Positions 3,116 through 17,672 are shown, counted from the stretch's first letter. The stretch: DNA of 17,672 bases from a virus (IMGVR_UViG_2529292998_000008), one strand, 5' to 3'. Notes: generated by a model not told the origin, from the sequence alone. Numbers and translations are program-made.

Positions 3116-3716
3116 TTCGTTGTTACCACCATCAGCCAGCAATTTCATGCGTTGTGCCGAAGCCGTCGGAACACGCATTACAGACATTCCGGTAGACCTC
3201 AACACGCTGTGGTCGCCGGACACCTGCCCGGTGCATCTGCTGCCTTATCTCGCCTGGGCGTTTTCCGTTGACCGCTGGGATCGCAACTGGCCGGAAGAGA
3301 CAAAGCGACAGGTGATTCGTGATGCATGGCTGATACACCGACACAAAGGGACCATCAGCGCACTGCGAAGAGCCGTGGAGCCTCTCGGCTACCTGATTGA
3401 AGTAAAGGAGTGGTGGCAACTCAACGAGGAGCCGGGAACATTTCGCATTGTTGTCGGAGTACTTGATCAGGGCATCACCGATGAAATGCATCAGGAACTT
3501 GAGCGCCTTATTGCGGATGCAAAACCAGTAAGTCGCCATCTGACGGGGCTGGCGATCAGCCTGAGTGTGAACGGAAAGATTTTCGTTGGTACGGGATGCT
3601 ATCACGGCGATGCCCTGACGGTTTATCCCTACACCCCGGAGTCCATTATTGTCGAAGGGGACTATTTCCCTGCCCCGGCCATTCATTTAATTGATAATCT
3701 GAGAGTAAACGCATGA
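3108..3716 (+). CDS. I: Baseplate / tail-fiber-attachment protein I
   Basis: ATG at 3108 with AAGGTGGA RBS, overlapping J stop; the ORF track's 3075 start is a GTG extension; stop overlaps H start (ATGA). Confidence 0.75.
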   Translation: MSNSLLPPSASNFMRCAEAVGTRITDIPVDLNTLWSPDTCPVHLLPYLAWAFSVDRWDRNWPEETKRQVIRDAWLIHRHKGTISALRRAVEPLGYLIEVKEWWQLNEEPGTFRIVVGVLDQGITDEMHQELERLIADAKPVSRHLTGLAISLSVNGKIFVGTGCYHGDALTVYPYTPESIIVEGDYFPAPAIHLIDNLRVNA

Positions 3717-5383
3717 CAGTGAAATACTACGCTATTCTGACTAATCAGGGCGCGGCACGACTGGCTAACGCGACGATGCTCGGCAGTAAACTGAATCTGA
3801 CGCAAATGGCCGTTGGTGATGCAAATGGTGTGTTACCAACACCAGACCCTGCACAAACAAAACTGATTAACCAGAAACGCATTGCACCGCTGAATCTTCT
3901 GAGTGTTGACCCTAACAATCAGAGCCAGATTATTGCGGAGCAAATCATCCCTGAAAACGAGGGAGGATTCTGGATCCGTGAGATTGGTCTTTATGATGAT
4001 GAAGGTGCACTCATTGCGGTGGCAAACTGCCCGGAAACGTACAAACCGCAGTTGCAGGAAGGCAGTGGACGCACCCAGACTATCCGCATGATTCTGGTTG
4101 TCACGAACACCGAAGCCATCACGCTGAAAATCGACCCGTCTGTGGTTCTGGCAACCCGCAAATATGTGGATGATAAAATATCAGAGCACGAACAATCACG
4201 ACGTCACCCGGACGCCTCGCTGACCGTAAAAGGTTTTACTCAGTTAAGCAGTGCAATTAACAGTGAATCAGAAACACTGGCCGCAACACCGAAAGCGGTT
4301 AAGGCTGCATATGACCTGGCTAACGGGAAATATACCGCCCAGAACGCCACCACTACACAAAAAGGGATTGTTCAGCTCAGTAGCGCCACGAACAGCACGT
4401 CTGAAACGCTGGCAGCGACACCAAAAGCTGTTAAGGCGGTAATGGATGAAACGAACAAGAAAGCACCATTAAACAGCCCGGCACTGACCGGAACGCCAAC
4501 AACACCAACAGCGCCACAGGGGGCTAATAGTACCCAGATCGCAAGCACGGCTTTCGTTATGGCCGCGATTGCCGCACTTGTAGATTCGTCACCTGATGCA
4601 CTGAACACGCTGAACGAACTGGCTGCGGCGCTGGGCAATGACCCGAATTTTGCGACCACCATGACTAACGCGCTTGCGGGTAAGCAACCGAAGAATGCCA
4701 CCCTGACGGCGCTGGCGAAGCTTGCTACATCAGCAGATAAACTCCCATATTTTACAGGGGCAGATCGTGCCGCGTTAACCGCGTTGACAAGTGTTGGACG
4801 TGCCATTCTTGGTAAAACCAGCACTCAGGGAGTTCTTGATTACCTTGGTTTGGGGGAAGGCTCTGCACTGCCCGTTGGTGTACCTGTTCCGTGGCCCTCA
4901 GCCACTCCACCAACGGGCTGGCTGAAATGCAACGGCGCAGCATTTTCTCCTGAAGATTACCCCAAACTGGCACAGGCTTACCCCGCGAACAAATTACCGG
5001 ATCTACGGGGTGAATTTATCCGTGGCTGGGATGATGGACGTGGCTTGGATGCTGGGCGTGCCTTGCTAAGTCTTCAGGATGACTCTTTTGAAGCGCACAG
5101 GCATGAGTCCTTTTTTTATGCGGGTATTTCACGTAATGAGATCCCATTAAAAAATCTTCCAAGTTCAGACGAGATGCTGACTTTAAGTTCCACAACTAAT
5201 GCCTTGTCCCCGGACGATATTGATGCCACCAACTCGTTAATTGGTAATGACGATTACAACTGTCTTATCGAAGGGAATAAAAATAACAAACGAACAGCGA
5301 CAGGACTGAGTACCAGTATTGTCGGCACAGCAGAAACACGCCCCCGCAACGTTGCATTCAATTACATCGTAAGAGCCGCATGA
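3713..5383 (+). CDS. H: Tail fiber protein H: constant N-terminal part fused in the current orientation to C-terminal cassette C1
   Basis: 556 aa; N-terminus typical of P2 H / Mu S tail fibers; contains two SETLAATPKAVK-type fiber repeats; the C-terminal ~180 aa (from ~4847) is homologous to four downstream cassettes. Confidence 0.9.
   Translation: MTVKYYAILTNQGAARLANATMLGSKLNLTQMAVGDANGVLPTPDPAQTKLINQKRIAPLNLLSVDPNNQSQIIAEQIIPENEGGFWIREIGLYDDEGALIAVANCPETYKPQLQEGSGRTQTIRMILVVTNTEAITLKIDPSVVLATRKYVDDKISEHEQSRRHPDASLTVKGFTQLSSAINSESETLAATPKAVKAAYDLANGKYTAQNATTTQKGIVQLSSATNSTSETLAATPKAVKAVMDETNKKAPLNSPALTGTPTTPTAPQGANSTQIASTAFVMAAIAALVDSSPDALNTLNELAAALGNDPNFATTMTNALAGKQPKNATLTALAKLATSADKLPYFTGADRAALTALTSVGRAILGKTSTQGVLDYLGLGEGSALPVGVPVPWPSATPPTGWLKCNGAAFSPEDYPKLAQAYPANKLPDLRGEFIRGWDDGRGLDAGRALLSLQDDSFEAHRHESFFYAGISRNEIPLKNLPSSDEMLTLSSTTNALSPDDIDATNSLIGNDDYNCLIEGNKNNKRTATGLSTSIVGTAETRPRNVAFNYIVRAA
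4228..4450 (+). repeat. Two copies of a ~29-aa phage tail fibre repeat inside H (…SSA.NS.SETLAATPKAVKA…)
   Basis: Near-identical peptide and nucleotide blocks at ~4228-4314 and ~4361-4450. Confidence 0.7.
4833..4858 (+). repeat. Candidate crossover site s1 (hix/gix-like, H constant/variable junction)
   Basis: On the opposite strand reads CCTTCCCCCAAACC-AA-GGTAATC, resembling the AAACC-NN-GGTTT core of Hin-family sites; start of the ~210-bp block shared by all cassettes. Confidence 0.55.
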
Positions 5384-5402
5384 AAACGTTGGTTTGGGGA
5401 AA
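5377..5402 (+). repeat. Candidate crossover site s2
   Basis: GCATGAAAACG-TT-GGTTTGGGG at the C1 stop / C2 junction; direct orientation relative to s1. Confidence 0.55.
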
Positions 5403-5822
5403 GGCTCTGCGCTGCCCGTTGGTGTGCCCGTTCCGTGGTCCTCAGCAACACCACCAACGGGCTGGCTGAAATGTAACGGCGCAGCATTTTCTTCTGAAAT
5501 GTATCCCGGACTGGCAAAGGCTTACCCCACCAATAAATTACCGGATTTACGGGGTGAATTTATCCGTGGCTGGGATGATGGGCGCGGGATTGATGCGGGA
5601 CGTACCCTGCTTTCAGGGCAGGATGGTACAAGTTTTTCTCATTACGGAGGTAATTTCGACATTGGGTCTGGTCATTCAATCAATAACTATGACCAAATTG
5701 TTTCTAACCAACCAAGCTTTTCCCGTTTTTCATTTGCAGGACCTTCACGAGGTGATGGGGTCAATTATGTAACCATTCGTCCTCGTAATATTGCGTTTAA
5801 TTACATCGTAAGGGCAGCATGA
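5394..5822 (+). CDS. Silent tail fiber C-terminal cassette C2 (no ATG; expressible only after fusion to H)
   Basis: 142-codon frame beginning GKGSALPVGVPVPW…, ending RPRNIAFNYIVRAA*; conserved ~70-aa N-part, unique middle. Confidence 0.65.
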   Translation: MGKGSALPVGVPVPWSSATPPTGWLKCNGAAFSSEMYPGLAKAYPTNKLPDLRGEFIRGWDDGRGIDAGRTLLSGQDGTSFSHYGGNFDIGSGHSINNYDQIVSNQPSFSRFSFAGPSRGDGVNYVTIRPRNIAFNYIVRAA

Positions 5823-5841
5823 AAACGTTGGTTTGGGGGAA
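5816..5841 (+). repeat. Candidate crossover site s3
   Basis: Same GCATGAAAACG-TT-GGTTTGGGGG junction sequence between C2 and C3. Confidence 0.55.
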
Positions 5842-6309
5842 GGCTCTGCACTGCCCGTTGGTGTGCCTGTTCCATGGCCCTTAGCAACACCACCAACGGG
5901 CTGGCTGAAATGTAACGGTGCAGCATTTTCTTCTGAAATGTACCCCAAACTGGCAAAAGCCTACCCCACTAATAAATTACCGGATTTACGCGGAGAATTT
6001 ATCCGTGGCTGGGATGATGGGCGAGGAATTGATGCGGCACGCGCTTTATTGAGCATTCAAAACGGGATGTTGGAAAAACACCGCCATATTGTTGTAGCTA
6101 ACGATGGATATGACACAAAAGATGAATGGGAGTTGGCTACGATTTTCAAAAAAACATATACACAAGGCAGGGGGCTTGATGCCACAAATACAGGAGGGAG
6201 TTTGATTCCATCACCAACGCTTCATTCACGAGGAAGTATTGGTAACACAGGTGGTAGTGAAACCCGCCCCCGCAATATTGCATTTAACTATATCGTGAGG
6301 GCGGCTTAG
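5833..6309 (+). CDS. Silent tail fiber C-terminal cassette C3
   Basis: 158-codon frame GEGSALPVGVPVPWPLATPPTGWLKCNGAAF… ending …NIAFNYIVRAA*; no ATG start. Confidence 0.65.
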   Translation: MGEGSALPVGVPVPWPLATPPTGWLKCNGAAFSSEMYPKLAKAYPTNKLPDLRGEFIRGWDDGRGIDAARALLSIQNGMLEKHRHIVVANDGYDTKDEWELATIFKKTYTQGRGLDATNTGGSLIPSPTLHSRGSIGNTGGSETRPRNIAFNYIVRAA

Positions 6310-6315
6310 TTATAT

Positions 6316-6927
6316 TCAACTGGCTGCTGCCAGTGGTATTTCCGGCAAGTTGATATCTGGTACCATGTTTATATCCATTGCGTTCAGCGCGTCTATATAA
6401 TCCAGCACGGCATTAAGCCGGGTGGTTTCTGCCTGCGTCAACTTCCGCCCGGCCTGCAACTTCAACTGAATCAGACTTATGGAAGCCATTGCCGCATCAG
6501 CCAGTGACTGGCGCTTGGTTTCTGCCGCTTCTACTGCGGCACGATGTTGTGCCTCAGTATCTGTCACCCATTTTTCACCATCCCATTTATCGTATGGTGT
6601 TAACGGGGCGATAGTGGTTGTAGTTTTCGGGTAGTCACCCAGCGCCGTGATTTCTTCGGTGTTTCCCGTGTCAGTGCTATAGACGGTTTCACCACGATGG
6701 TCTGGCGCATACTCCCATGAACTTAAATTCTCCGAACGGCGGATAGCATAGCCCGCTTTATGTGCGCCCGGGGCATCTAAACAGGAATTTGCCGGAATAC
6801 CGACACCCACAGCAAGATATTCAGTTGATTCGGAAATATATTCCCGTGTCTCACCATCATAGTTATAAACGACGATGTTTCCTGCCTGTACGGCAATAAG
6901 GTCATCATTTAATATCGCGTTATTCAT
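6316..6927 (-). CDS. Tail fiber assembly chaperone (Tfa; Mu U / P2 G / TfaE family)
   Basis: 203 aa; C-terminal half recognisably similar to E. coli TfaE (…DHRGxTVY…KWNG/DGxxWVxDTEA…); start ATG overlaps the stop of cassette B (TAATG). Confidence 0.8.
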   Translation of the reverse strand: MNNAILNDDLIAVQAGNIVVYNYDGETREYISESTEYLAVGVGIPANSCLDAPGAHKAGYAIRRSENLSSWEYAPDHRGETVYSTDTGNTEEITALGDYPKTTTTIAPLTPYDKWDGEKWVTDTEAQHRAAVEAAETKRQSLADAAMASISLIQLKLQAGRKLTQAETTRLNAVLDYIDALNAMDINMVPDINLPEIPLAAAS

Positions 6928-7385
6928 TATGCGGTTCTCACAATATAATTGAAGGCAATATTGCGTGGGCGGTTTTCATTCCCATCTGAGGATTCCGTTC
7001 TGTATTGACTGGTAAATCTACCGTTAATTGCACCTTGCCGGACGGCGTTATCTGTCGACAACAGACTATCCCCTCTTTTGTCATTTGGCACCAGTACCGT
7101 GTTATCCCACGCATCCCATGACCGAATATTATGATAATGACTTCCTGTTAACCACCCCTGCATGCTTAAGATGCCCCTTCCGGCATCCACCCCGCGCCCA
7201 TCATCCCAGCCACGGATAAACTCACCGCGTAAATCAGGTAATTTTAACGTTGGGTAAACCTTTGCCAGATTTGGGTACATTTCAGAAGAAAATGCTGCAC
7301 CGTTACATTTCAGCCAGCCCGTTGGTGGTGTGGCTGAGGGCCATGGAACAGGCACACCAACGGGCAGTGCAGAGCCTTCCCCCAA
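6927..7385 (-). CDS. Tail fiber C-terminal cassette B (inverted orientation, translationally coupled to tfa)
   Basis: 152-codon frame GEGSALPVGVPVPWPSATPPTGWLKCNGAAF… ending …NIAFNYIVRTA*. Confidence 0.65.
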   Translation of the reverse strand: MGEGSALPVGVPVPWPSATPPTGWLKCNGAAFSSEMYPNLAKVYPTLKLPDLRGEFIRGWDDGRGVDAGRGILSMQGWLTGSHYHNIRSWDAWDNTVLVPNDKRGDSLLSTDNAVRQGAINGRFTSQYRTESSDGNENRPRNIAFNYIVRTA

Positions 7386-7402
7386 ACCAACGTTTTCATG
7401 CT
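7377..7402 (-). repeat. Candidate crossover site s4 (inverted relative to s1-s3)
   Basis: Plus strand reads TTCCCCCAAACC-AA-CGTTTTCATGC, the reverse complement of the s2/s3 junction. Confidence 0.55.
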
Positions 7403-7959
7403 GCCCTTACGATGTAATTAAACGCAATGTTGCGTGGGCGGTTTTCGTTTGCAGTTGGAACAATTTTTGAAGCATCAAGGCCAATCACTTTTGGGTAAAC
7501 AGCGCCGTCTGTCCTTTCTGTCACCATACTTCTGACTAAGGAGAAATAACTATTGTTTGTTGAGGAATTTAAAGGCACCACTGCCCCCTTAAACGAGCCT
7601 ACTGATTCCCATATTGAATAATTTTCAGTGTTTACAGTCTTGAACTCACCATAGATATTACGTATGGCATCACCTTGAGCGGATAATATTGTTCTCCCCG
7701 CATCCGCACTACGTCCATCATCCCAGCCACGAATAAATTCACCCCGTAAATCCGGTAATTTATTGGTGGGGTAAGCCTTTGCCAGTCCGGGATACATTTC
7801 AGAAGAAAATGCTGCGCCGTTACATTTCAGCCAGCCCGTTGGTGGTGTTGCTGAGGGCCACGGAACGGGCACACCAACAGGCAGCGCAGAACCTTCCCCC
7901 AAACCAACGTTTTCGTTTTTATCCCTACCTATACCAACTATGTATTTTTCACGAAACAA
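7396..7959 (-). CDS. Tail fiber C-terminal cassette A (inverted orientation, nearest the invertase)
   Basis: Frame …VGLGEGSALPVGVPVPWPSATPP… ending …NIAFNYIVRAA*; the ORF track's N-terminal extension to a TTG at 7959 is probably not translated. Confidence 0.6.
   Translation of the reverse strand: MFREKYIVGIGRDKNENVGLGEGSALPVGVPVPWPSATPPTGWLKCNGAAFSSEMYPGLAKAYPTNKLPDLRGEFIRGWDDGRSADAGRTILSAQGDAIRNIYGEFKTVNTENYSIWESVGSFKGAVVPLNSSTNNSYFSLVRSMVTERTDGAVYPKVIGLDASKIVPTANENRPRNIAFNYIVRAA
7894..7919 (-). repeat. Candidate crossover site s5 (inverted; sits just upstream of the invertase promoter/start)
   Basis: Plus strand CCTTCCCCCAAACC-AA-CGTTTTCGTT at 7894-7919. Confidence 0.55.
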
Positions 7960-7973
7960 AGAGGATGTTTTTT

Positions 7974-8573
7974 ATGCAAATTGGCTATGTTCGTGTGTCA
8001 ACAAATGACCAGAACACGGATTTACAACGCAATGCACTGAACTGCGCAGGATGTGAACTGATTTTTGAAGATAAAATCAGCGGAACGAAATCAGCCAGAC
8101 CGGGATTGAAAAAACTGCTCAGAACGCTATCAGAAGGAGATACGCTGGTTGTCTGGAAGCTGGACAGACTGGGCAGAAGTATGAAACACCTGATCACGCT
8201 TATTGAGGAATTGCGGGAAAAAGGTGTTAATTTCCGTAGTCTGACGGACAGCATTGACACATCAACACCCATGGGGCGTTTCTTTTTTCACGTCATGGGG
8301 GCTTTAGCCGAAATGGAACGTGAATTAATTGTAGAGCGTACACTGGCCGGGCTGGCAGCAGCACGCGCACAAGGACGCATTGGCGGACGTCGCCCGAAGT
8401 TGACAAAAGAACAACACGAGCAAATAGCGAGGCTGATTAAAAACGGTCATGACAGGAAACAACTGGCGATCATTTACGACATCGGCATATCGACGATTTA
8501 TCGTTATCACCCTGTAGGCGATATACAGGCTGAAGAAACAACCAGGCAGACTCAGGAAAATGAAAACCGCTAA
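7974..8573 (+). CDS. Site-specific DNA invertase, serine recombinase of the Hin/Gin/Cin/Pin family
   Basis: N-terminus MQIGYVRVSTNDQNTDLQRNAL with catalytic Ser in the VRVST motif; C-terminal HTH (GISTIYRY); GAGGA RBS 8 nt before ATG 7974; the ORF-track start at 7779 is an upstream in-frame extension. Confidence 0.9.
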   Translation: MQIGYVRVSTNDQNTDLQRNALNCAGCELIFEDKISGTKSARPGLKKLLRTLSEGDTLVVWKLDRLGRSMKHLITLIEELREKGVNFRSLTDSIDTSTPMGRFFFHVMGALAEMERELIVERTLAGLAAARAQGRIGGRRPKLTKEQHEQIARLIKNGHDRKQLAIIYDIGISTIYRYHPVGDIQAEETTRQTQENENR

Positions 8574-8599: not shown

Positions 8600-9094
8600 T
8601 CAAAACAGCCCTTTAACGGAGCTGGCCGCGCTGTTAAGGGATGATGTGACCTTATCTTTGAAGCCGGACAGCATATCACTGAACGATGAGGATTGCAGGC
8701 GCTCCCGCAAATCCTCATCACAGCGTTCAAGAGTCAGTGAAAACTCTATCTTTTTCGCCTTACCGTAGCGATCAAACTCGGAGCGGGTCGTATTCGTTCC
8801 GGTCAGGACATACATGCCGTAAATCTGCCCGACACCATCAATCAGAGGCCAGGGGCGTCCTGTATATGCCTGCGTGGTCAGCAACGAAAGCGACACTTCG
8901 CCACCTGTAATTTCAGGATAAAGCACACCAGAAAGAACGATGCGATCATCGCCTGCCCCGATATACTGCCAGCTTGCTGAACGGTTAACGCGTTCATTTT
9001 TCACATGCCGCCAGCTTTTGTTTTGCTGTAACTGCTGATGCGGCAACGTACGCAGCTCAAAAACAAACATGCCGTAGATCATCATCATGGCCAT
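8600..9094 (-). CDS. U: Tail protein U, P2 gpU-like
   Basis: 164 aa; recognisable similarity to P2 gpU (…GMFVFxxxTLPHQ…GVLYPExTGG…WPLxDGxGxIYGMYV…). Confidence 0.85.
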   Translation of the reverse strand: MAMMMIYGMFVFELRTLPHQQLQQNKSWRHVKNERVNRSASWQYIGAGDDRIVLSGVLYPEITGGEVSLSLLTTQAYTGRPWPLIDGVGQIYGMYVLTGTNTTRSEFDRYGKAKKIEFSLTLERCDEDLRERLQSSSFSDMLSGFKDKVTSSLNSAASSVKGLF

Positions 9095-9100
9095 GACTCC

Positions 9101-11917
9101 TCAATCTTTATCGTAAAAACTGCCACGCCCGGCACGGGCGCGCCGTTCCATTTCTGCCCTGACCATTTCACCGACCAGTTTCGCCAGTTCGCGGGGATTC
9201 TGCGTAACAACGTTATGCAGATGAACATGAATTTCACCACCAAATCCGGAGGCAACAGGCTCCCGGTTACGGGAAGTTACAGGAACTGATGCCACTGGAG
9301 ATCGTATGGCCTCCGCCACCGGGCGGGAGCTGGCCGCAACAACAGGGACCAGCGCCGGAGGCAGCGGAGCCGGGACCACGGGGGTGATATTCATTGCGGG
9401 GGCAGGCTTACTGACCTGTGCAATCTTCCGCTCCTGCCACTCCCCACGAACAGCAAGTGCGCGGGGCAGGTTCTTAAAGACAATATCGCCGGGGCCAATA
9501 CGTTTTTTTGTCTCATCAACCAGCTTACCTGTGTTATCAGCAATTTTGCTGAGTCTGCGTAGCGTGCCGGTATTGCTGTCTGTGAGCGGTTTGTTGTCTT
9601 TGGGTTTATCGCCTCCGGTGCCATTGCCATTTTCCGCAGACTTCGGCGGATTGATTTTCGCAATGTCTCCCTGAAACAGAGCAACCTTGTCCTGAAGAAT
9701 GGCCGCACGCTGTGCGTCTTCGATTTTCTTTCTCGCCCTTTCCGCTTCATCCGGAAGCACACCGAGTTTTTCAAGTATCCACGCCAGCGTATCCAGCAAC
9801 ATTTTTGCAGGCGTCAGAACAAGCTGTAGCGCGCCACCAAGAGCGTTACCGAATATCTCGCCAGCACTGGTACATTTATCCAGCGTTTCCTTGCTGGACT
9901 CCATCGGTGACAGCAGCGATTTAAACCAGTTAAACACCTGGCTGATCCCGCTTCCGATTGCGTCAAAAACAGGACCAAACCGTTCAAAGGTTTCACGCAA
10001 CGGGTTCAGCCTTTCCATAATCCCGCTGAACACCCCGGCAAAAAATGCCCTGATGGGATCCCAGTATTTCCAGATAAGAACGGCAGCTCCGGCAAGCGCA
10101 GCCACGATAAGACCAACCGGACTGAACAGCGCCCCGATAGCGCCTCCCAGCAAAGAAACGGAACCCGTCACCATTCCCCACAGCGCAGGCAACACCCTGA
10201 CGACATTCATTGACCGGGTAAGAATGTCAAAACCAAGACGCAGGGTGGCCAGCTTCCCGTAAAGCACCCCAATAACCAGTGACAACGAGCCAATCGTTGC
10301 AGTCATTGCCAGCAACGCACCGCCTGCTATCAGTAGCTGGCGCGTCAGTACCGGATGGGCCTGCGCCAGCGAGGTGATTTTTTCAAGCACCCGCGTGAGC
10401 CACTGCGTGACAGAACGCAGCGGACCGTCAACCAGATCACTGATGCGAATACGAAGACCTTCCCATGCGCTGTCGAGATTTTTCAGGTCCCCATCAAGAT
10501 TATCGGCCATTACTTTTGCAACGCGATCGGCCTCTCCCCTTGCCCCCTGCAATTCTCTGGTCAGTTTTTGCAGCTCTCCTGAACCAGCCGCCGCAACAAG
10601 CGTCTGCAAACCAACGAACGCCTCTTCTCCGGCGATGTCCTTGAAGAAGGAGACCTGGTCCACCTGTCCGTATTTTTGTGTCGCCTTATAGAGATCAAGC
10701 AGCACATCCTCCATCGGGCGCATTTTGCCTCTGGCGTCAGCAACTGACACCCCCAGCTCTTTCAGTGCATCAGCCGCAGCTTTTGGCGGTGATGCAAGGC
10801 GGGACAGACTTGCGCGCATGGCCGTGCCAGCATCGCTTCCGCGAAGACCATTATTGGCAAGCATCCCGGCCATAGCCGCCGCTTCTTCAAGACTGATACC
10901 AAGTTTTGCGGCAACCGGACCGGTATACTTCATGGTTTCGCCCAGCGCGCGTAAATCAGTATTGGTCCGGGTGAATGCCGCTGTCAGCGTATCGCCAACC
11001 CGGTCCATTTGATCGGCTGTCAGGTTGAACTGTGTGAGGATATTGGAGCCTATATCCGCCGTCTCGCCGAGTTCGACGCCACCTGCCAGCGCCATATTAA
11101 GAACACCGGGCAATGCGGCCTGAATGGCCTGCGGAGTAAAACCAGCCATTGCCAGAAAGCTCTGCCCACTGGCGGCATCACTCGCAGTAAACTGTGTTTC
11201 AGAGCCAAGTTTTAACGCCTGCTCACGCAGCGCCTTAAACTGCGGGCTGTTTTTGTCGATTCGCGTCAGTGCCTGAACGCGGGACATCTCTTTGCCGAAC
11301 CCGATCGCAGGCTGCAAAAAACGCCCGGCAGCATAGCCGCCCGCCGCTGCCGCACCAATTGCCAGCGCACCACCTGTTTTCAGTTTTCCCGCGGTTTCCT
11401 GCGCGCGCGAATACCGCTCACGCGCCCGCGTTACACGCGCAAGCGCCTGCCGTTCGCGTTCAAGCTGGTTGTTGTACTGTTCGGTGCGTCTGATGGCCTG
11501 CTGGATGGTGTTATCGCTGCCTGTCAGGGAAATGCCGTGGCGTTTCAGCTCTCCGCCAAGCTCCCGCATTTTCTGAATTTCCCGTGTGCGCGATTCATTC
11601 AGGCGTTCAAGCCGGGTGCTTAACTGCTGCATCAGCTTTTGTTGTTTTTCGCTGAGCACTGTACCCGTGCGTTGTAACTGATTAAGGGCGTTAAGCTGGC
11701 GTCGTGCTTTCACGATACCCGCATCCGCTTTACTGACAGCGTCGCGGGCGCGCTCAAATGATCGCGCCTGACGCTCGAGATTTTTGATCGCCCCCTGCGT
11801 TCGCTGGATGGAGTCACCAAACTGCCCCATCAGGCGGCGGGCGTTTTCGGCAGGCCGGGTCAGCCTGTCAACGGCGCTGAAAGCGACCCGGATATCAAGA
11901 GTCTTCATTGTCTGCAT
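9101..11917 (-). CDS. T: Tail tape measure protein T
   Basis: ~940 aa, coiled-coil-rich N-part and hydrophobic central segment; between E' and U. Start ambiguous: first ATG at 11917, in-frame GTG at 11944. Confidence 0.85.
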   Translation of the reverse strand: MQTMKTLDIRVAFSAVDRLTRPAENARRLMGQFGDSIQRTQGAIKNLERQARSFERARDAVSKADAGIVKARRQLNALNQLQRTGTVLSEKQQKLMQQLSTRLERLNESRTREIQKMRELGGELKRHGISLTGSDNTIQQAIRRTEQYNNQLERERQALARVTRARERYSRAQETAGKLKTGGALAIGAAAAGGYAAGRFLQPAIGFGKEMSRVQALTRIDKNSPQFKALREQALKLGSETQFTASDAASGQSFLAMAGFTPQAIQAALPGVLNMALAGGVELGETADIGSNILTQFNLTADQMDRVGDTLTAAFTRTNTDLRALGETMKYTGPVAAKLGISLEEAAAMAGMLANNGLRGSDAGTAMRASLSRLASPPKAAADALKELGVSVADARGKMRPMEDVLLDLYKATQKYGQVDQVSFFKDIAGEEAFVGLQTLVAAAGSGELQKLTRELQGARGEADRVAKVMADNLDGDLKNLDSAWEGLRIRISDLVDGPLRSVTQWLTRVLEKITSLAQAHPVLTRQLLIAGGALLAMTATIGSLSLVIGVLYGKLATLRLGFDILTRSMNVVRVLPALWGMVTGSVSLLGGAIGALFSPVGLIVAALAGAAVLIWKYWDPIRAFFAGVFSGIMERLNPLRETFERFGPVFDAIGSGISQVFNWFKSLLSPMESSKETLDKCTSAGEIFGNALGGALQLVLTPAKMLLDTLAWILEKLGVLPDEAERARKKIEDAQRAAILQDKVALFQGDIAKINPPKSAENGNGTGGDKPKDNKPLTDSNTGTLRRLSKIADNTGKLVDETKKRIGPGDIVFKNLPRALAVRGEWQERKIAQVSKPAPAMNITPVVPAPLPPALVPVVAASSRPVAEAIRSPVASVPVTSRNREPVASGFGGEIHVHLHNVVTQNPRELAKLVGEMVRAEMERRARAGRGSFYDKD

Positions 11918-12424
11918 TCCCGCTGCGAAGTGCCGCCCGCTCACGCCAGCTAACCACTTCGCCGGGCGTCATCATGAAGATTTCGGCGGGCGACCAGTTA
12001 AAAATGGCGGCAATATCCGCCACAAAGTCTTCTATGTGCTCAAAGCACACAACCGTGATCAGGCTTCCGTCGCCTGTTCGCTCTTCCCGCCAGAGTCCGC
12101 ACCGCTCAAAAAATTTACGGCAACCACACATAACTGAATAAAATCACGGGATGCCATTTTTTTGATCGTCACTTCATCCAGTCGTGGCGAGGTCACGCGT
12201 GACAGCAGCGTAAACATGGATTCCGCTTTCAGATTCAGCACATCAGACAGCGACAAATCTCGCAGAGATCCAGCCTGCTCAATAGCCCCGGTGATCTCCA
12301 CATACGTGATTTTTTCGCCGCCTCGCTCAATTGGTTGGGTAAGTTTTACGCCACGCTCACTGGTTTCTTTCACAGTGTCAGTAACTACCGTGTTTTCGGT
12401 ATCGATGTTTTTCGTCTCTTTCAT
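11895..12424 (-). CDS. E': Tail assembly chaperone E+E' (product of a programmed -1 frameshift)
   Basis: The -1 frame downstream of a T-TTT-TTG slippery heptamer (plus-strand 12107-12113) stays open to 11895 and overlaps the T start, as in P2 E/E' and lambda G/GT. Confidence 0.7.
12059..12424 (-). CDS. E: Tail assembly chaperone E
   Basis: 121 aa; AAAGGAG RBS before the ATG at 12424; lies between FII and T. Confidence 0.8.
   Translation of the reverse strand: MKETKNIDTENTVVTDTVKETSERGVKLTQPIERGGEKITYVEITGAIEQAGSLRDLSLSDVLNLKAESMFTLLSRVTSPRLDEVTIKKMASRDFIQLCVVAVNFLSGADSGGKSEQATEA
12107..12113 (-). promoter_or_regulatory. Slippery heptamer for the E to E' -1 ribosomal frameshift
   Basis: Minus-strand sequence AAT-TTT-TTG-AGC in the E frame. 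Confidence 0.6.
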
Positions 12425-12478
12425 CAGGAAACTCCTTTCAGTCAGAGGCGACGCACTGCGCCGCCTGCATATTACTTA

Positions 12479-12991
12479 TCAGCCAAGCCCGAGCGCGGAA
12501 CGGATGCGATCGGGCACAATGTCCTTGCCGTCCTTCCGGTAGATGTGGTTCAACAGGTCGATTTCCCACAGCGGGCGATCGTTAACGCTCAGCTTGTAGT
12601 AGGTGTTTTTGACAGCGTAAGTGTGTGATGTGGCTTCGCCCTGTTTGGCCTCCCCCATATCAATTTCCGTCACACGCCCGCGCATCTCGATTTCATACAG
12701 ATCGCTTTCTGCATCGGTGTAGTATTCACCCGCAAAACGCAGCAGCGTGCCGTCAATCGTGCCGCCATATTTAAGGAACAGCGCACGAACAGCTCCCCCC
12801 ATGACAAAGCTCGCATCAAGCGCGGAGTCGTCCAGACCGAGATCAATACTTACCGCCCCCATCATGCCACCACCCCGGTAGCTGTCGGTTTTGCGCGTCA
12901 GCTTAGGCAGAGTGACGGACGTCACCTTACCCACTTCGTTTTCACCATCCACAAACAGCGTAAAAAAGCGAAGATGTTTTGGTACAGCCAT
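12479..12991 (-). CDS. FII: Tail tube protein FII
   Basis: 170 aa; recognisable similarity to P2 FII (…VTLPKLTRK…YRGxGM…DLGLDD…RFAG…MRG…EIDxGExKQGE…). Confidence 0.9.
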   Translation of the reverse strand: MAVPKHLRFFTLFVDGENEVGKVTSVTLPKLTRKTDSYRGGGMMGAVSIDLGLDDSALDASFVMGGAVRALFLKYGGTIDGTLLRFAGEYYTDAESDLYEIEMRGRVTEIDMGEAKQGEATSHTYAVKNTYYKLSVNDRPLWEIDLLNHIYRKDGKDIVPDRIRSALGLG

Positions 12992-14175
12992 CAGGCACCT
13001 CCCAGCACCGCAAATGCGGGACCAAAGAATTCATCAGTAAACGTCTGGTAAAGCTCCATGTCTTCCAGTGGCGGAACGGGCGTATATTTGTAGCGAATAC
13101 GCACACGTCCCTGACGTAAATCCGTGGTGCCGTTATCCACCACGTCATACCAGCACTCCGCGCCAATCAGTTTCCCGGCAGTAACCAGCGAATCCAGTTT
13201 TGCCCTGATGGCACTGATAACATCCTTCACGTTCGCAGGCGTCAGTGGACTGTCGATGGTTTCAAACTGCGCTTCCGCAATTGAATCAGCCAGCACCTGT
13301 GCGGTTCGGGTATACACCTCAAAGATGTAGGCGTTCGTTTCCGGTGTGCGGTTGCCCCAGAAGCGGAACCCGTTACGACGAATAATGGTCGTGATTTCTT
13401 TGTTGTTGAGGCTGTTGGCATCACTGTCTTCGGCCTGTAACGACCAGAACACATGCCTCGACATCCCCAGCACATTTTTAACCGGAACGTTGGACAGCGA
13501 TTTGTGCCAGCCCTGCTCATGGTCAATGTACGCACGAAGGCCGCACGCATAAGCAGGCGCGGGGAACGTTTCGTTTTTGCCACTTTTCGGGTTGTAGGCG
13601 ATGAAGTCAGGCCATAAGAGCATCACCTCACGTTCGTTGAATTTCTGGCGGTAGGTAATCGCCTCAGCCATCGTGTTACAACCATGACATGCGGCATACA
13701 CAAACGCGCGCAGTTTACCCGCAATCACGCACAGGGATTTTGTCACCGCCTCCGTGTCCAGCTCCGGCGCGGCCAGAATACGCGGACGGTATCCGATGCT
13801 TTCATCCTGCTCTGCAACAAGCAGCGCATACATCCCCGTATAGCTGCCGTCAGATTCAGAACCACCGATAACCAGTTGATCCTGCGTCTTTCCGTTTTCT
13901 TCTTTGTGTTCAGCCACGCGAACGACGATCACCTTTGTGCTCACCTGGTCTGCGATGGCCTTAAGCGCACGATAAAGCGTCCCCGTTGTCCCGCATTTTC
14001 CCAGCACGTCATTGACGCGGGTCAGCAGTGTGGGCTTGTTCAGCGGGAACAGCTTCGCGTCCGCATCATCCGCCGTTGCCACGATACCGATAACGCTGGA
14101 ATCAACATCGTTAATCGCTGTTACCAGGTCGGTACTTTCCGTAACACGGGCACCATGAAAACGAGTTTCACTCAT
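12991..14175 (-). CDS. FI: Contractile tail sheath protein FI
   Basis: 394 aa; strong similarity to P2 FI (…DADAxxFPLNKP…WPDF…QGWHKxLSNV…GFRFWGNRT…YTPVPPLE…); AAGGGG RBS. Confidence 0.9.
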   Translation of the reverse strand: MSETRFHGARVTESTDLVTAINDVDSSVIGIVATADDADAKLFPLNKPTLLTRVNDVLGKCGTTGTLYRALKAIADQVSTKVIVVRVAEHKEENGKTQDQLVIGGSESDGSYTGMYALLVAEQDESIGYRPRILAAPELDTEAVTKSLCVIAGKLRAFVYAACHGCNTMAEAITYRQKFNEREVMLLWPDFIAYNPKSGKNETFPAPAYACGLRAYIDHEQGWHKSLSNVPVKNVLGMSRHVFWSLQAEDSDANSLNNKEITTIIRRNGFRFWGNRTPETNAYIFEVYTRTAQVLADSIAEAQFETIDSPLTPANVKDVISAIRAKLDSLVTAGKLIGAECWYDVVDNGTTDLRQGRVRIRYKYTPVPPLEDMELYQTFTDEFFGPAFAVLGGA

Positions 14176-14332
14176 AGCTTCAGCCCCTTGTATCCGTTAA
14201 ATGATTCGGCAACAATCATCACCCACCACGCGCGTAATCTCACCCCTGCGCCGTTCTCCCGCCACGGCGACAACAAAAAGCAGTAACCCCCTCCGCACGC
14301 ACATGCGACCATGCCGCACAGGGAGGGAGCAG
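14176..14332. promoter_or_regulatory. Divergent intergenic region between the FI operon (minus) and D-ogr (plus); presumed late promoters
   Basis: 157-bp non-coding gap between divergent start codons; no confident -35/-10 or Ogr-type TGT-N12-ACA motif found by eye. Confidence 0.35.
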
Positions 14333-15442
14333 ATGACCGACACCACCATGCAATTGCTCAGTCAGGGCACAGACCCCGTGAAAATGCCGGATTTTGATAT
14401 TCTCGCGGAGGGTAAAACGCTGTCAGGCGTGGCAGAGTGCCTGATGAGCCTGTCACTGACCGACAACCGGGGATTTGAGGCGGACCAGCTCACCATCACG
14501 CTGGATGATGCGGATGGTCAGTTGCAGCTACCGCCACGGGGCGCGCGCCTGACGGTTCTCATTGGCTGGAAAGGAGAACCGCTGACAGAAAAAGGCACTT
14601 ACATTGTTGATGAAATCGCTCACGAAGGACCGCCGGACAGGCTGACTGTTTCAGCCAGAAGCGCAGATTTTCGGGATGAATTTAACGTTAAACGTGAGGT
14701 GTCCTGGCATGATGTGACCGTTGAGCGTGTGGTATCCGCCATCGCTCATCGGTATGGTCTGAAACCGCAAATCAGCGAAATGCTGATGGATATCGAAATC
14801 GACCACGCCGACCAGACCGAAGAAAGCGACATGTCCTTCCTTACGCGCATGGCGGAAATGCTGGGCGCAATCACCACGGTAAAAAGCGGTAATCTGTTAT
14901 TCATCATGCCCGGCGGTGGCGTGAACGCACAGGGCCAGCCGTTGCCATCGTTTGCCATCACACGCAGCAGCGGCGATCGCCATCAGTTCCGCATTGCTGA
15001 CCGCGAAGCGTATACGGGGGTACGCGCTTACTGGCTTGATCTTAATTACGGGAAAAAGAAAAAAGTCAGCGTGAAACGCCGTAAACCGCCAAAACCCAAA
15101 AAGGAGAAAAGCAGCAGCCGTGAAGGTGATTATATGGAAGGCGCGGAAGGCAATGTGTTTGTGTTACGCAAGACTTATCAGAACGAGCAGACAGCAAGAC
15201 GCGCAGCGGCGGCAAAGTGGCAGCAACTACAACGCGGAGCCGCATCATTCTCCATCACGCTGGCGCGTGGACGTGCAGAACTCTACCCCGAAATGCATGG
15301 CACGGTAACAGGATTTAAAAGCGAGATTGATAATCAGGACTGGATCATTGCAAAAGCCGAGCACACCATTGATAACAGCGGTTTTACCACGCAGCTTGAG
15401 CTTGAGGCAAAAATCCCGGAATGGATAGCGGAAACAGAGTGA
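14333..15442 (+). CDS. D: Tail protein D
   Basis: 369 aa from the ATG at 14333, preceded by an AGGGAGGG RBS (the ORF track extends to 14201 but lacks an RBS there); position before ogr as in P2. Confidence 0.8.
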   Translation: MTDTTMQLLSQGTDPVKMPDFDILAEGKTLSGVAECLMSLSLTDNRGFEADQLTITLDDADGQLQLPPRGARLTVLIGWKGEPLTEKGTYIVDEIAHEGPPDRLTVSARSADFRDEFNVKREVSWHDVTVERVVSAIAHRYGLKPQISEMLMDIEIDHADQTEESDMSFLTRMAEMLGAITTVKSGNLLFIMPGGGVNAQGQPLPSFAITRSSGDRHQFRIADREAYTGVRAYWLDLNYGKKKKVSVKRRKPPKPKKEKSSSREGDYMEGAEGNVFVLRKTYQNEQTARRAAAAKWQQLQRGAASFSITLARGRAELYPEMHGTVTGFKSEIDNQDWIIAKAEHTIDNSGFTTQLELEAKIPEWIAETE

Positions 15443-15482
15443 GCAACTTAGAATAGGCAGCACCACGTTAAGGGAGGTCGCT

Positions 15483-15743
15483 ATGTTCCGTTGTCCGCTT
15501 TGTGGCGCATCTGCCCGTATCCGCACCAGTCGTTCGGAAAATGATTCAAACACCGTACGGAAAAAATATTACCAGTGTAACAACCTGGAATGCGGCATAA
15601 GTTTCTCAACACTGGAAGCTTTCCATAAATTCACATCGAAACACGCCCCCGGCGTTCACTCTTCAGAAGGTATCCCGTGGCATGAGTTGCCAGCTTCACA
15701 CAGGGGAAACAATCAGATGAGTTTGCCTTTATCTCAGAATTAA
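15483..15743 (+). CDS. ogr: Late-gene transcriptional activator, Ogr/Delta zinc-finger family
   Basis: 86 aa, MFRCPLCG…YYQCNNLECG… Cys-X2-Cys…Cys-X4-Cys motif like P2 Ogr; AGGGAGG RBS. Confidence 0.85.
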   Translation: MFRCPLCGASARIRTSRSENDSNTVRKKYYQCNNLECGISFSTLEAFHKFTSKHAPGVHSSEGIPWHELPASHRGNNQMSLPLSQN

Positions 15744-15763
15744 CAGGCAGAATTGCCGGAGTA

Positions 15764-15790
15764 ACAAAAACGCGATAGATTACGCGCGGG
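15764..15790 (-). terminator. Weak hairpin plus T-run on the minus strand; candidate 3' end of a Sok-like antisense RNA
   Basis: Minus strand reads CCCGCGCG-TAATCTAT-CGCG-TTTTT, directly upstream of the mok-like start. Confidence 0.3.
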
Positions 15791-15803
15791 TGCCTTTCGG
15801 CTG

Positions 15804-16016
15804 ATGGTCGGAGGGAATACCCGAAGGCCAGATGTGGAAAGGCCCCGGAAAACATCTCTGTTTAACCGAGGCCCTAACCGCATTACCTTGACAAGTGAAA
15901 GGTTAGCGCCTCTCCGGAAAAGGAGCAAGTGCTATGTCGCAAAAATCGCTTACGGCCATCACGTTCTGCGTGACGGCAATCCTCATCATCTGGATGCTGC
16001 ACGGTTCGCTGTGTGA
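15804..16016 (+). CDS. mok-like overlapping reading frame (modulator of hok translation)
   Basis: 70-codon ORF in a different frame that starts upstream of and overlaps the hok-like gene, as in hok/mok/sok loci. Confidence 0.4.
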   Translation: MVGGNTRRPDVERPRKTSLFNRGPNRITLTSERLAPLRKRSKCYVAKIAYGHHVLRDGNPHHLDAARFAV

Positions 16017-16074
16017 AATACGGATGAGTTTCTGGGGAGCGGAGTTTGCGGCGTTCTTACAGTGTAAGCAGTAA
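15934..16074 (+). CDS. hok: Hok/Gef-family type I toxin (small membrane peptide)
   Basis: 46 aa MSQKSLTAITFCVTAILIIWMLHGSLCEIRMSFWGAEFAAFLQCKQ: hydrophobic N-terminal helix then SLCEIR…AAF, matching Hok (…[21 protein letters not shown]…); AGGAG RBS 8 nt upstream. Confidence 0.75.
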   Translation: MSQKSLTAITFCVTAILIIWMLHGSLCEIRMSFWGAEFAAFLQCKQ

Positions 16075-16167
16075 GGAAACCGCGACGGGGAAGGCAACTT
16101 CCCCGTCAATCGGTTGCCAGGGTAAAGGTCGAAAAGACACCCTATTTCCAGTTGACGTGAACAACAA

Positions 16168-16200
16168 GCCCGCAGCGTAAAAACTGCGGGTTTTCTTTTT
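16168..16200 (+). terminator. Intrinsic terminator (probable 3' end of the hok-like mRNA)
   Basis: GCCCGCAG-CGTAAAAA-CTGCGGGT followed by TTTTCTTTTT. Confidence 0.65.
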
Positions 16201-16232
16201 GGTTCCCTCACTCATGAGGACACCAAAAAACA

Positions 16233-16264
16233 AAGCCCACAGCATAGAAACTGTGGGCTTTTTG
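16233..16264 (+). terminator. Second terminator-like hairpin, a diverged copy of the one at 16168-16200
   Basis: AAGCCCACAG-CATAGAAA-CTGTGGGCTT-TTTG, preceded by an A-run. Confidence 0.55.
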
Positions 16265-16337
16265 CATTCAAAGATGGACGTTATATGGACACTTAAAAAT
16301 AAAATCCATTTATTTTCAAATGATTAAACCTCTACTT

Positions 16338-16359
16338 AAAGCGCCCGCAGGCGCTTTTT
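16338..16359. terminator. GC-rich hairpin with T-run just 3' of serS (likely serS terminator, possibly bidirectional)
   Basis: AAAGCGCC-CGCA-GGCGCTTTTT located about 20 nt below the serS stop codon. Confidence 0.5.
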
Positions 16360-16379
16360 AGATTCAGAAAAATTGGGTA

Positions 16380-17672
<1,293 letters not shown>

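Follow-up and report, generated by a model that had tools for sequence, protein, structure and literature searches.

A probable hok/sok-type toxin–antitoxin module beside the right attachment site of a P88-like prophage at the serS terminator

A well-described counterpart of the locus considered here is hok/mok/sok (parB) of plasmid R1. In the R1 model, pairing between the 5′ tac and 3′ fbi elements locks the full-length RNA, 3′ trimming lets tac pair locally, Sok blocks the RNA, and loss of Sok frees Hok (PMC9841398). The only phage-borne hok system tested experimentally is hokW-sokW of Sp5/933W, in which hokW is toxic, is neutralised by sokW and is switched on by prophage induction, and phage release is raised ~2-fold (PMC8621323). 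Here we describe a Hok-family locus in a 17,672-nucleotide (nt) stretch of viral DNA, IMGVR_UViG_2529292998_000008, which as a whole we call the window. We consider it likely, with a probability of roughly 0.8, that the locus is a hok/sok-type type I toxin–antitoxin module forming a self-contained moron (own promoter, gene and terminator), and that no other gene separates it from attR in a ~36.7-kb P88-like prophage, which is inserted into the serS terminator between the host genes serS and dmsA.

The toxin gene and its start signal are as follows.

15934..16074, plus strand: hok, the gene for a 46-amino acid (aa) Hok/Gef-family membrane toxin, translation MSQKSLTAITFCVTAILIIWMLHGSLCEIRMSFWGAEFAAFLQCKQ
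Within the hok coding sequence: the conserved stretch TTTGCGGCGTTCTTAC
15920..15925, plus strand: the hok Shine-Dalgarno (SD) sequence AAGGAG, read from the sequence, 8 nt before the ATG

The product matched the Pfam family HOK_GEF (PF01848) with 29.9 bits (E = 4.1e-7), which passes the gathering score of 22, and its residues 7-44 aligned with profile positions 5-42 of 42. It also matched PHROG 251 ("MokW-like host killing") over its full length with 80.6 bits (E = 1.3e-22), in a library that has no curated cut-off. The hallmarks of Hok/Gef proteins were all found: small size, a hydrophobic N-terminal helix (Kyte-Doolittle 19-residue mean of 1.5-2.0 over residues 1-30) and a Cys-containing core, (S/D)LCE...(A/V)A(F/V), represented here by SLCEIR and AAF, both of which align with R1 Hok and HokW. 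For coding and RNA comparisons we aligned 66 distinct relatives, most of which had been gathered with a 15-mer probe that fixes the tac side. The hok open reading frame (ORF) was intact in all 66, and its variation at codon positions 1, 2 and 3 (0.45, 0.22 and 0.65 bits) followed the coding pattern, 3 > 1 > 2. The protein of the window was the commonest variant, occurring at 42 of 103 loci. Thus, the ORF, hydrophobic N-terminus and motifs that an earlier note had picked out from the window sequence are all present and, with the Pfam gathering score passed, the resemblance to Hok is more than chance.

The gene had not been overlooked. The exact 46-aa protein is RefSeq WP_000078920.1, a "Hok/Gef family protein" of the NCBI pipeline (a name given despite sub-cut-off NCBIfam scores), and the exact sequence lies on at least 1000 contigs, named "Hok/Gef family protein" or "protein HokA". 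The P88 record names its homologue (gp52) "hok/gef family protein", and others are labelled "MokW-like host killing"; PADLOC gave no match. Since the NCBI pipeline already annotates hok, the remark in the earlier note that it is easy to miss falls away: it is a real, ordinary and already annotated element of a common P2-like prophage. HokA of E. coli (NF007290) was the best-scoring named Hok model, and some sources call the window protein HokA; at 34 bits against a cut-off of 89, however, it is not a HokA equivalog.

The label "MokW-like" might suggest that the gene is hokW. We rejected this identity, as the primers of PMC8621323 put hokW at another site of 933W. HokW, at 933W 58460-58786, where the record annotates sokW, mokW and hokW, is another paralogue, a Gef/RelF-like protein of 51 aa with 31% identity to the window protein over 35 residues; the two systems are alike in combining a Hok-family toxin and an antisense Sok on a temperate phage. 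The label stems from the PHROG name, not from orthology. R1 Hok is likewise distant (52 aa against 46; 39% identity over 31 residues). Because the named Hok models failed, identity to R1 Hok and HokW is low and hokW lies elsewhere in 933W, the locus belongs to a distinct 46-aa Hok subfamily, whose carriers include P88-like phages, Stx phages, and IncI1, IncF and other plasmids.

The subfamily includes a second hok copy in 933W and VT2-Sakai (Sp5), located between lom and L0129 (933W 45490-45841) and unannotated in the 933W record. It is 82% identical to the window over ~350 nt of DNA, has the same tac, Sok promoter boxes and SD, shares the C-terminus AEFAAFLQCKQ with the window Hok and likewise lacks a leader ORF. 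It differs in being carried by a lambdoid phage at another position, in its Sok-tail target and 3′ end, and in that no matching terminator could be aligned. The Stx2 phages 933W and VT2-Sakai thus hold two hok loci, the annotated hokW/mokW/sokW and the unannotated 46-aa copy after lom. Tandem copies of the subfamily, 455-722 base pairs (bp) apart and with different Sok-target regions, were seen on some IMG/VR viral contigs.

The genes and signals around hok were as follows.

15483..15743, plus strand: ogr, upstream of hok, an Ogr/Delta zinc-finger gene (Pfam Ogr_Delta)
16166..16200, plus strand: intrinsic terminator of the hok mRNA, a 10-bp stem (6 GC pairs) at 16166-16193 followed by the T-run TCTTTTTGGT, -16.3 kcal/mol
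16284-16294: arm-type 11-bp repeat TATGGACACTT, with a second copy beside int, so that both arms are represented
16338..16357: attR core AAAGCGCCCGCAGGCGCTTT, a 20-bp direct repeat doubling as the serS terminator hairpin; right prophage end
16380..17672, minus strand: serS, downstream of hok, complete and 100% identical to K-12

The placing of hok between ogr and serS, and of a terminator close to 16168-16200, in the earlier note was therefore correct. Over positions 15400-17000 the window is 99.4% identical to E. coli 266917_2, where a prophage of ~36.7 kb, with integrase and Cox present, runs from serS to an integrase adjoining dmsA, and where the same 20-mer att core recurs at attL, beside int and dmsA. 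The window encodes P2-type late domains (Pfam Ogr_Delta, Phage_GPD, Phage_P2_GpU and tail fibre domains) and is 93% identical to P88 over 15401-16200. In every feature looked for, the host element is a P88-like (genus Xuanwuvirus, P2-like) prophage.

The end of the hok transcript unit, near 16197, is separated from the att core by 140 bp on the prophage side. The same gene follows ogr in the free phages P88 (gp52), Chuche, PhiR44_2, P884B11, 500465-2 and Citrobacter phage Shae_phiSM; the proteins differ from the window Hok by 0-1 residues, and the DNA of the unit is 91-96% identical in free Xuanwuvirus phages. Because the unit lies inside the att core and the ogr-hok unit occurs in free phage genomes, hok is phage cargo and not a host gene caught at the junction, in line with the suggestion of a phage moron in the earlier note. 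The ogr-hok-serS junction was found in 279 of 5426 complete E. coli genomes.

The predicted transcript is organised as follows.

15753..15781, plus strand: putative hok promoter, -35 TTGCCG (15753-15758), 17-nt spacer, -10 TAGATT (15776-15781)
15788..16197, plus strand: putative full-length hok mRNA, ~410 nt, its 3′ end taken from the terminator
15788..15811, plus strand: tac-like 5′ element GGGUGCCUUUCGGCU..., with two competing partners
15834..15846, plus strand: ucb-like box GUGGAAAGGCCCC, with which tac can pair locally instead of with fbi
16084..16107, plus strand: hairpin of the 3′ untranslated region, GACGGGGAAGG..CUUCCCCGUC, -20.7 kcal/mol
16117..16142, plus strand: fbi-like 3′ element, with the core GGUCGAAAAGACACCC at 16127-16142

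We set the 5′ end by the start of a match to Rfam RF01794 and by positional homology with R1 (+1 GGCGCUU) and hokW. In the putative promoter, the -10 TA.A.T was invariant and the -35 TT nearly so among the 66 relatives, even where the upstream flank was unrelated. RF01794 matched 15788-15947 on the hok strand over its full model length with 48.4 bits (E = 3.8e-9); as controls, an R1-type locus scored 88.9 bits on the hok strand, P88 47.9 and the second 933W copy 35.6. Although named "sok antitoxin", this family is modelled in the hok sense, spanning the mRNA leader from +1 to the hok start, and its matches therefore fall on the toxin strand and not on the antitoxin strand.

The folding check asked for in the earlier note bore out a fold-back. 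The region 15788-16200 folded with -174.2 kcal/mol (z = -7.7 against shuffles). Two partners were predicted for the tac-like element, at -24.1 kcal/mol the 3′ element at 16117-16142 and at -25.1 to -30.9 kcal/mol the local box at about 15834-15846; a fold forced to contain the tac/fbi helix lay within 2.2 kcal/mol of the minimum free energy. Across the relatives, 95.5% of cells in the tac/fbi helix were paired; 11 of its pairs showed one-sided changes (such as G-U to G-C and U-G to U-A) and 1 changed on both sides. The 5′ hairpin at 15788-15846 (-33.4 kcal/mol) was 99.8% paired but nearly invariant, and in the hairpin at 16084-16107 both sides had changed in 4 of 10 pairs. The whole tested structure was 89.3% paired, compared with 40-54% when the partners were slid. 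The 5′ ends differ among R1, hokW and this locus, and each prefers its own 3′ region and finds its best complement +49 to +69 nt past its own stop codon; a 5′ tac and a 3′ fbi at an equivalent distance past the stop are thus shared with R1. These models point to a long-range tac/fbi pairing with an alternative local ucb partner, as in hok/sok, and the transcribed region is predicted to have the architecture of a hok mRNA.

On the opposite strand, the leader contains a candidate Sok-like gene.

15900..15928, minus strand: putative sok promoter, -35 TTGCTC (15928..15923), 17 nt, -10 TAACCT (15905..15900)
15835..15893, minus strand: putative Sok-like antisense RNA, ~59 nt with predicted ends, a single-stranded 5′ tail of ~18 nt followed by a terminator-like hairpin

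The promoter has the same layout and the same place within the leader as that of R1 (TTGCGC-17-TATCCT; in common, -35 TTGnnC, 17 nt, -10 TAnCCT), and its AGGTTA and CAA were invariant in the 66 relatives. The hairpin was predicted at -21.5 to -26.4 kcal/mol, and the overall geometry matches that of the sokW annotated in 933W. The target of the Sok 5′ tail (15876-15899) was the most variable transcribed part of the leader, at 0.74 bits compared with 0.12-0.16 in the neighbouring segments, which would fit a role in specificity, restricting cross-talk among hok loci.

By analogy with R1, we propose that a weak promoter would yield a stable mRNA of ~410 nt starting near 15788, in which pairing of the 5′ tac with the 3′ fbi (16117-16142) would keep the RNA inert. 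Slow 3′ trimming would remove fbi, upon which tac would pair with the box at about 15834-15846 and the leader would refold. A short-lived antisense Sok of ~59 nt, transcribed from the minus strand from about 15893 to 15835, would pair with the refolded leader and prevent Hok synthesis; once Sok is no longer made, Hok would be translated and would damage the inner membrane.

Several observations count against a hok/sok-type module. A promoter consensus scan found none on either strand: the hok promoter agrees with the consensus at 8/12 positions, below the scan threshold, and the sok promoter, a weak sigma-70 match (6/12), was likewise missed. Both promoters were accordingly assigned by positional homology and conservation only. 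The RF01794 score is below the gathering score of 59, and NCBIfam cut-offs were reached neither for the HokA equivalog NF007290 (scores above) nor for the Hok family toxin NF007279 (21.6 bits against 73). In the window sequence taken alone, the tac/fbi duplex did not stand out from shuffles, 78 of 1000 of which did as well (z = -1.5), a site in the coding region at about 15953 was a nearly equal partner for tac (-23.9 kcal/mol), and the minimum free energy fold of the full-length RNA did not contain tac/fbi. As the search pattern fixed the first 15 nt of tac, covariation is visible only on the 3′ side. In the literature library searched, we found no experiments on the 46-aa subfamily, the sole tests (PMC8621323) having been made on the other paralogue, and nothing relevant on the accessions of the protein, on hok in P2-like phages or P88, or on hok loci without mok.

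Could the locus then be a relic, decaying and unexpressed? Several chromosomal hok loci of E. coli K-12 are reportedly inactive relics, a finding attributed to Pedersen and Gerdes in 1999. The sub-threshold Rfam and NCBIfam scores, the weak promoter matches and the lack of mok would agree with decay, as would an A at 16137 of the window, where 63 of the 66 relatives have G, so that the tac/fbi core contains one C·A mismatch. The locus of one relative, E. albertii pEA5_1, is plainly disrupted. By contrast, the hok frame is intact with coding-type variation in all aligned phage and plasmid relatives, the window encodes the commonest protein variant, and conservation of the helices, promoter boxes and SD persists across differing flanks and cargo. 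The locus is also kept in free, inducible phages. We therefore regard a relic as unlikely. A type I toxin locus of the Hok family, as the earlier note had supposed, is supported by the RF01794 leader match, although it is sub-threshold, and by the fold-back kept in relatives.

A second alternative, which we judge less likely still, is a canonical hok/mok/sok locus, in which translation of a mok frame opens the hok start and Sok blocks this step. The earlier note had read the following frame as mok-like.

15804..16016, plus strand: ORF of 70 codons, +2 frame with respect to hok; in our view not a gene

The frame indeed exists, overlaps hok in the same relative frame as R1 mok and is, like R1 mok, 70 codons long; the R1 mok SD has its aligned counterpart in GAGG at 15869-15872, and an in-frame TTG follows at 15888. 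Its reading as mok did not survive comparison, the frame being closed or startless in most relatives. Among the eleven comparators first used, only the window and Shae_phiSM had the ORF, whereas P88, Chuche, the 933W copy and the plasmid copies had stops at -13 to -76 and no start; in the P88 and Chuche copies, which are 92-93% identical, the stop is at -43. Of 61 distinct loci on viral contigs, 11 kept the frame from the tac ATG and 12 had a different ATG at -103, while in 33 no non-hok frame was open from a start within the leader as far as the hok SD. The tac and hok ATGs were 129-135 nt apart, a spacing that fell into all three phases (31, 26 and 9), and the leader showed no codon periodicity (0.40, 0.39 and 0.42 bits) and hence no third-position bias. 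No SD precedes the ATG at 15804, which falls within the tac stem; this ATG is also present in R1, with a stop directly after it. The product matched no family and was absent from a collection of 15 billion proteins. Because the ORF is not conserved and has no periodicity, SD or family match, we conclude that it is probably an accident of an open frame in a structured RNA. A conserved mok, as in the R1 paradigm, was thus not found: an ORF is present in the window but is unconserved, with insertions and deletions that shift its frame.

Since mok is missing, Hok would most likely start directly at its own strong SD, AAGGAG, which unlike the situation in R1 is well spaced; the lower Rfam leader score (48 against 89 bits) is a further difference from R1. 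How Sok might then act is suggested by folding models. The SD can be closed in a hairpin with CUCC/GCGC (15904-15934, -12.9 kcal/mol), and the anti-SD strand GCGCCUCUCC (15906-15915) may pair either with GAGGC.CUAACC upstream, inside the Sok target, or with the SD region. When the Sok target was blocked in the models, the probability of GGAG/anti-SD pairing was 0.98-1.0 in 12 of 12 representatives, and when it was unblocked, 0.24-0.99. We hypothesize that Sok, by occupying its target, probably leaves GCGCCUCUCC free to close the SD hairpin, in addition to causing duplex cleavage; this is the weakest step of the scheme. Two modelling results speak against it: overall accessibility of the hok SD barely shifted between full-length, trimmed and Sok-blocked models (0.20-0.29), and in several relatives the SD hairpin was predicted to be closed even without Sok. 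Only the SD/anti-SD helix shifted in probability, to an uneven extent.

We tentatively extend this proposal to the 46-aa subfamily (P88-like phages, the second Stx-phage copy, IncI1 and other plasmids), which may be functional hok/sok without mok, with Hok made from its own SD and Sok, which pairs 28 nt or more upstream of this SD, controlling at a distance through pairing of GCGCCUCUCC with GAGGC (15869-15873) or the SD, plus duplex cleavage; we hold this possible, at somewhat less than even odds. If true, such mok-free control would represent a variation on the textbook R1 mechanism, which requires translation of mok.

Finally, that hok is a host chromosomal gene beside the attachment site or picked up there, an option raised in the earlier note and prompted by its place as the last gene before the host flank, is highly improbable, because the empty K-12 serS-dmsA spacer (238 bp) has no hok, K-12 homology begins only at 16338 (100% from there to the window end), the att core and the Int arm-type repeat lie outside hok, and hok follows ogr in free phages that have other att regions and other downstream cargo.

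We thus return to a phage-borne hok/sok-type module. Such a module could stabilise the prophage, assist lysis on induction in the manner of hokW, or exclude other phages; exclusion of T4 has been reported for R1 hok/sok, according to a paper that cites that work. The discovery value is small, as routine annotation already names this Hok/Gef member and the prophage is a common one in E. coli, and neither the "MokW-like" label nor the hokW-sokW experiments apply directly to the 46-aa paralogue. The one mildly new point is that the 46-aa subfamily probably works without mok; if a mok-free subfamily is confirmed, the standard model of hok regulation would need qualifying, and annotation tools that search for mok would benefit. 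In addition, the interval between ogr and att in P88-like prophages emerges as a cargo site that begins with a toxin–antitoxin module.

Between hok and the att core, P88-like phages have a variable cargo slot, which in the window is empty except for terminators and the att arm. It contains a hypothetical gene in P88, a pair of com and a DNA methyltransferase in Chuche, tagO and a hypothetical gene in Shae_phiSM, and a TIR-domain protein in E. coli EC571; P88, Chuche and Shae_phiSM thus carry extra cargo, unlike the window. One further hairpin was located in this interval.

16232..16261: second terminator-like hairpin, bidirectional, in the interval from hok to the att arm, with a 12-bp stem found on the minus strand and T-runs on both sides

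The att core is the intrinsic terminator hairpin of serS itself, so that integration rebuilds the terminator at attR, and the prophage is separated from serS read-through by the two hairpins at 16232-16261 and 16166-16193. Just 3′ of the hok terminator, at 16204-16222, is a small inverted repeat, CCCTCACTCATGAGG, at which relatives have other sequences of the same symmetry, such as CCCTCACAAATGAGGG and CTCACTAGCTAGTGAG; it may be part of the att arm.

A scan of genome contigs with the 15-mer GGGTGCCTTTCGGCT was set aside, as it gave chance matches in unrelated GC-rich genomes; only 2 loci passed a crude Hok-ORF filter, and at least one of these resembles a chance ORF.

Elsewhere in the window, the tail genes for sheath, tube, tape measure and gpU (8600-14175) lie on the minus strand, and gpD, ogr and hok (14201-16074) on the plus strand; in the gene order of P2, these tail genes, gpD and ogr are all on one strand. 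A tail fibre gene of 556 aa (3713..5383) is followed by an array of tail-fibre tip cassettes (window 5000-8000) that comprises four short ORFs, each starting with a Collar domain, and a tail-fibre assembly gene.

5394..5822, plus strand: Collar-domain ORF
5833..6309, plus strand: Collar-domain ORF
6316..6927, minus strand: tail-fibre assembly gene
6927..7385, minus strand: Collar-domain ORF
7396..7959, minus strand: Collar-domain ORF

No invertase was found among the window ORFs tested. The plus- and minus-strand cassettes are joined by inverted repeats of 218-282 nt that are 88-94% complementary, and the array looks like a multi-cassette invertible host-range switch.

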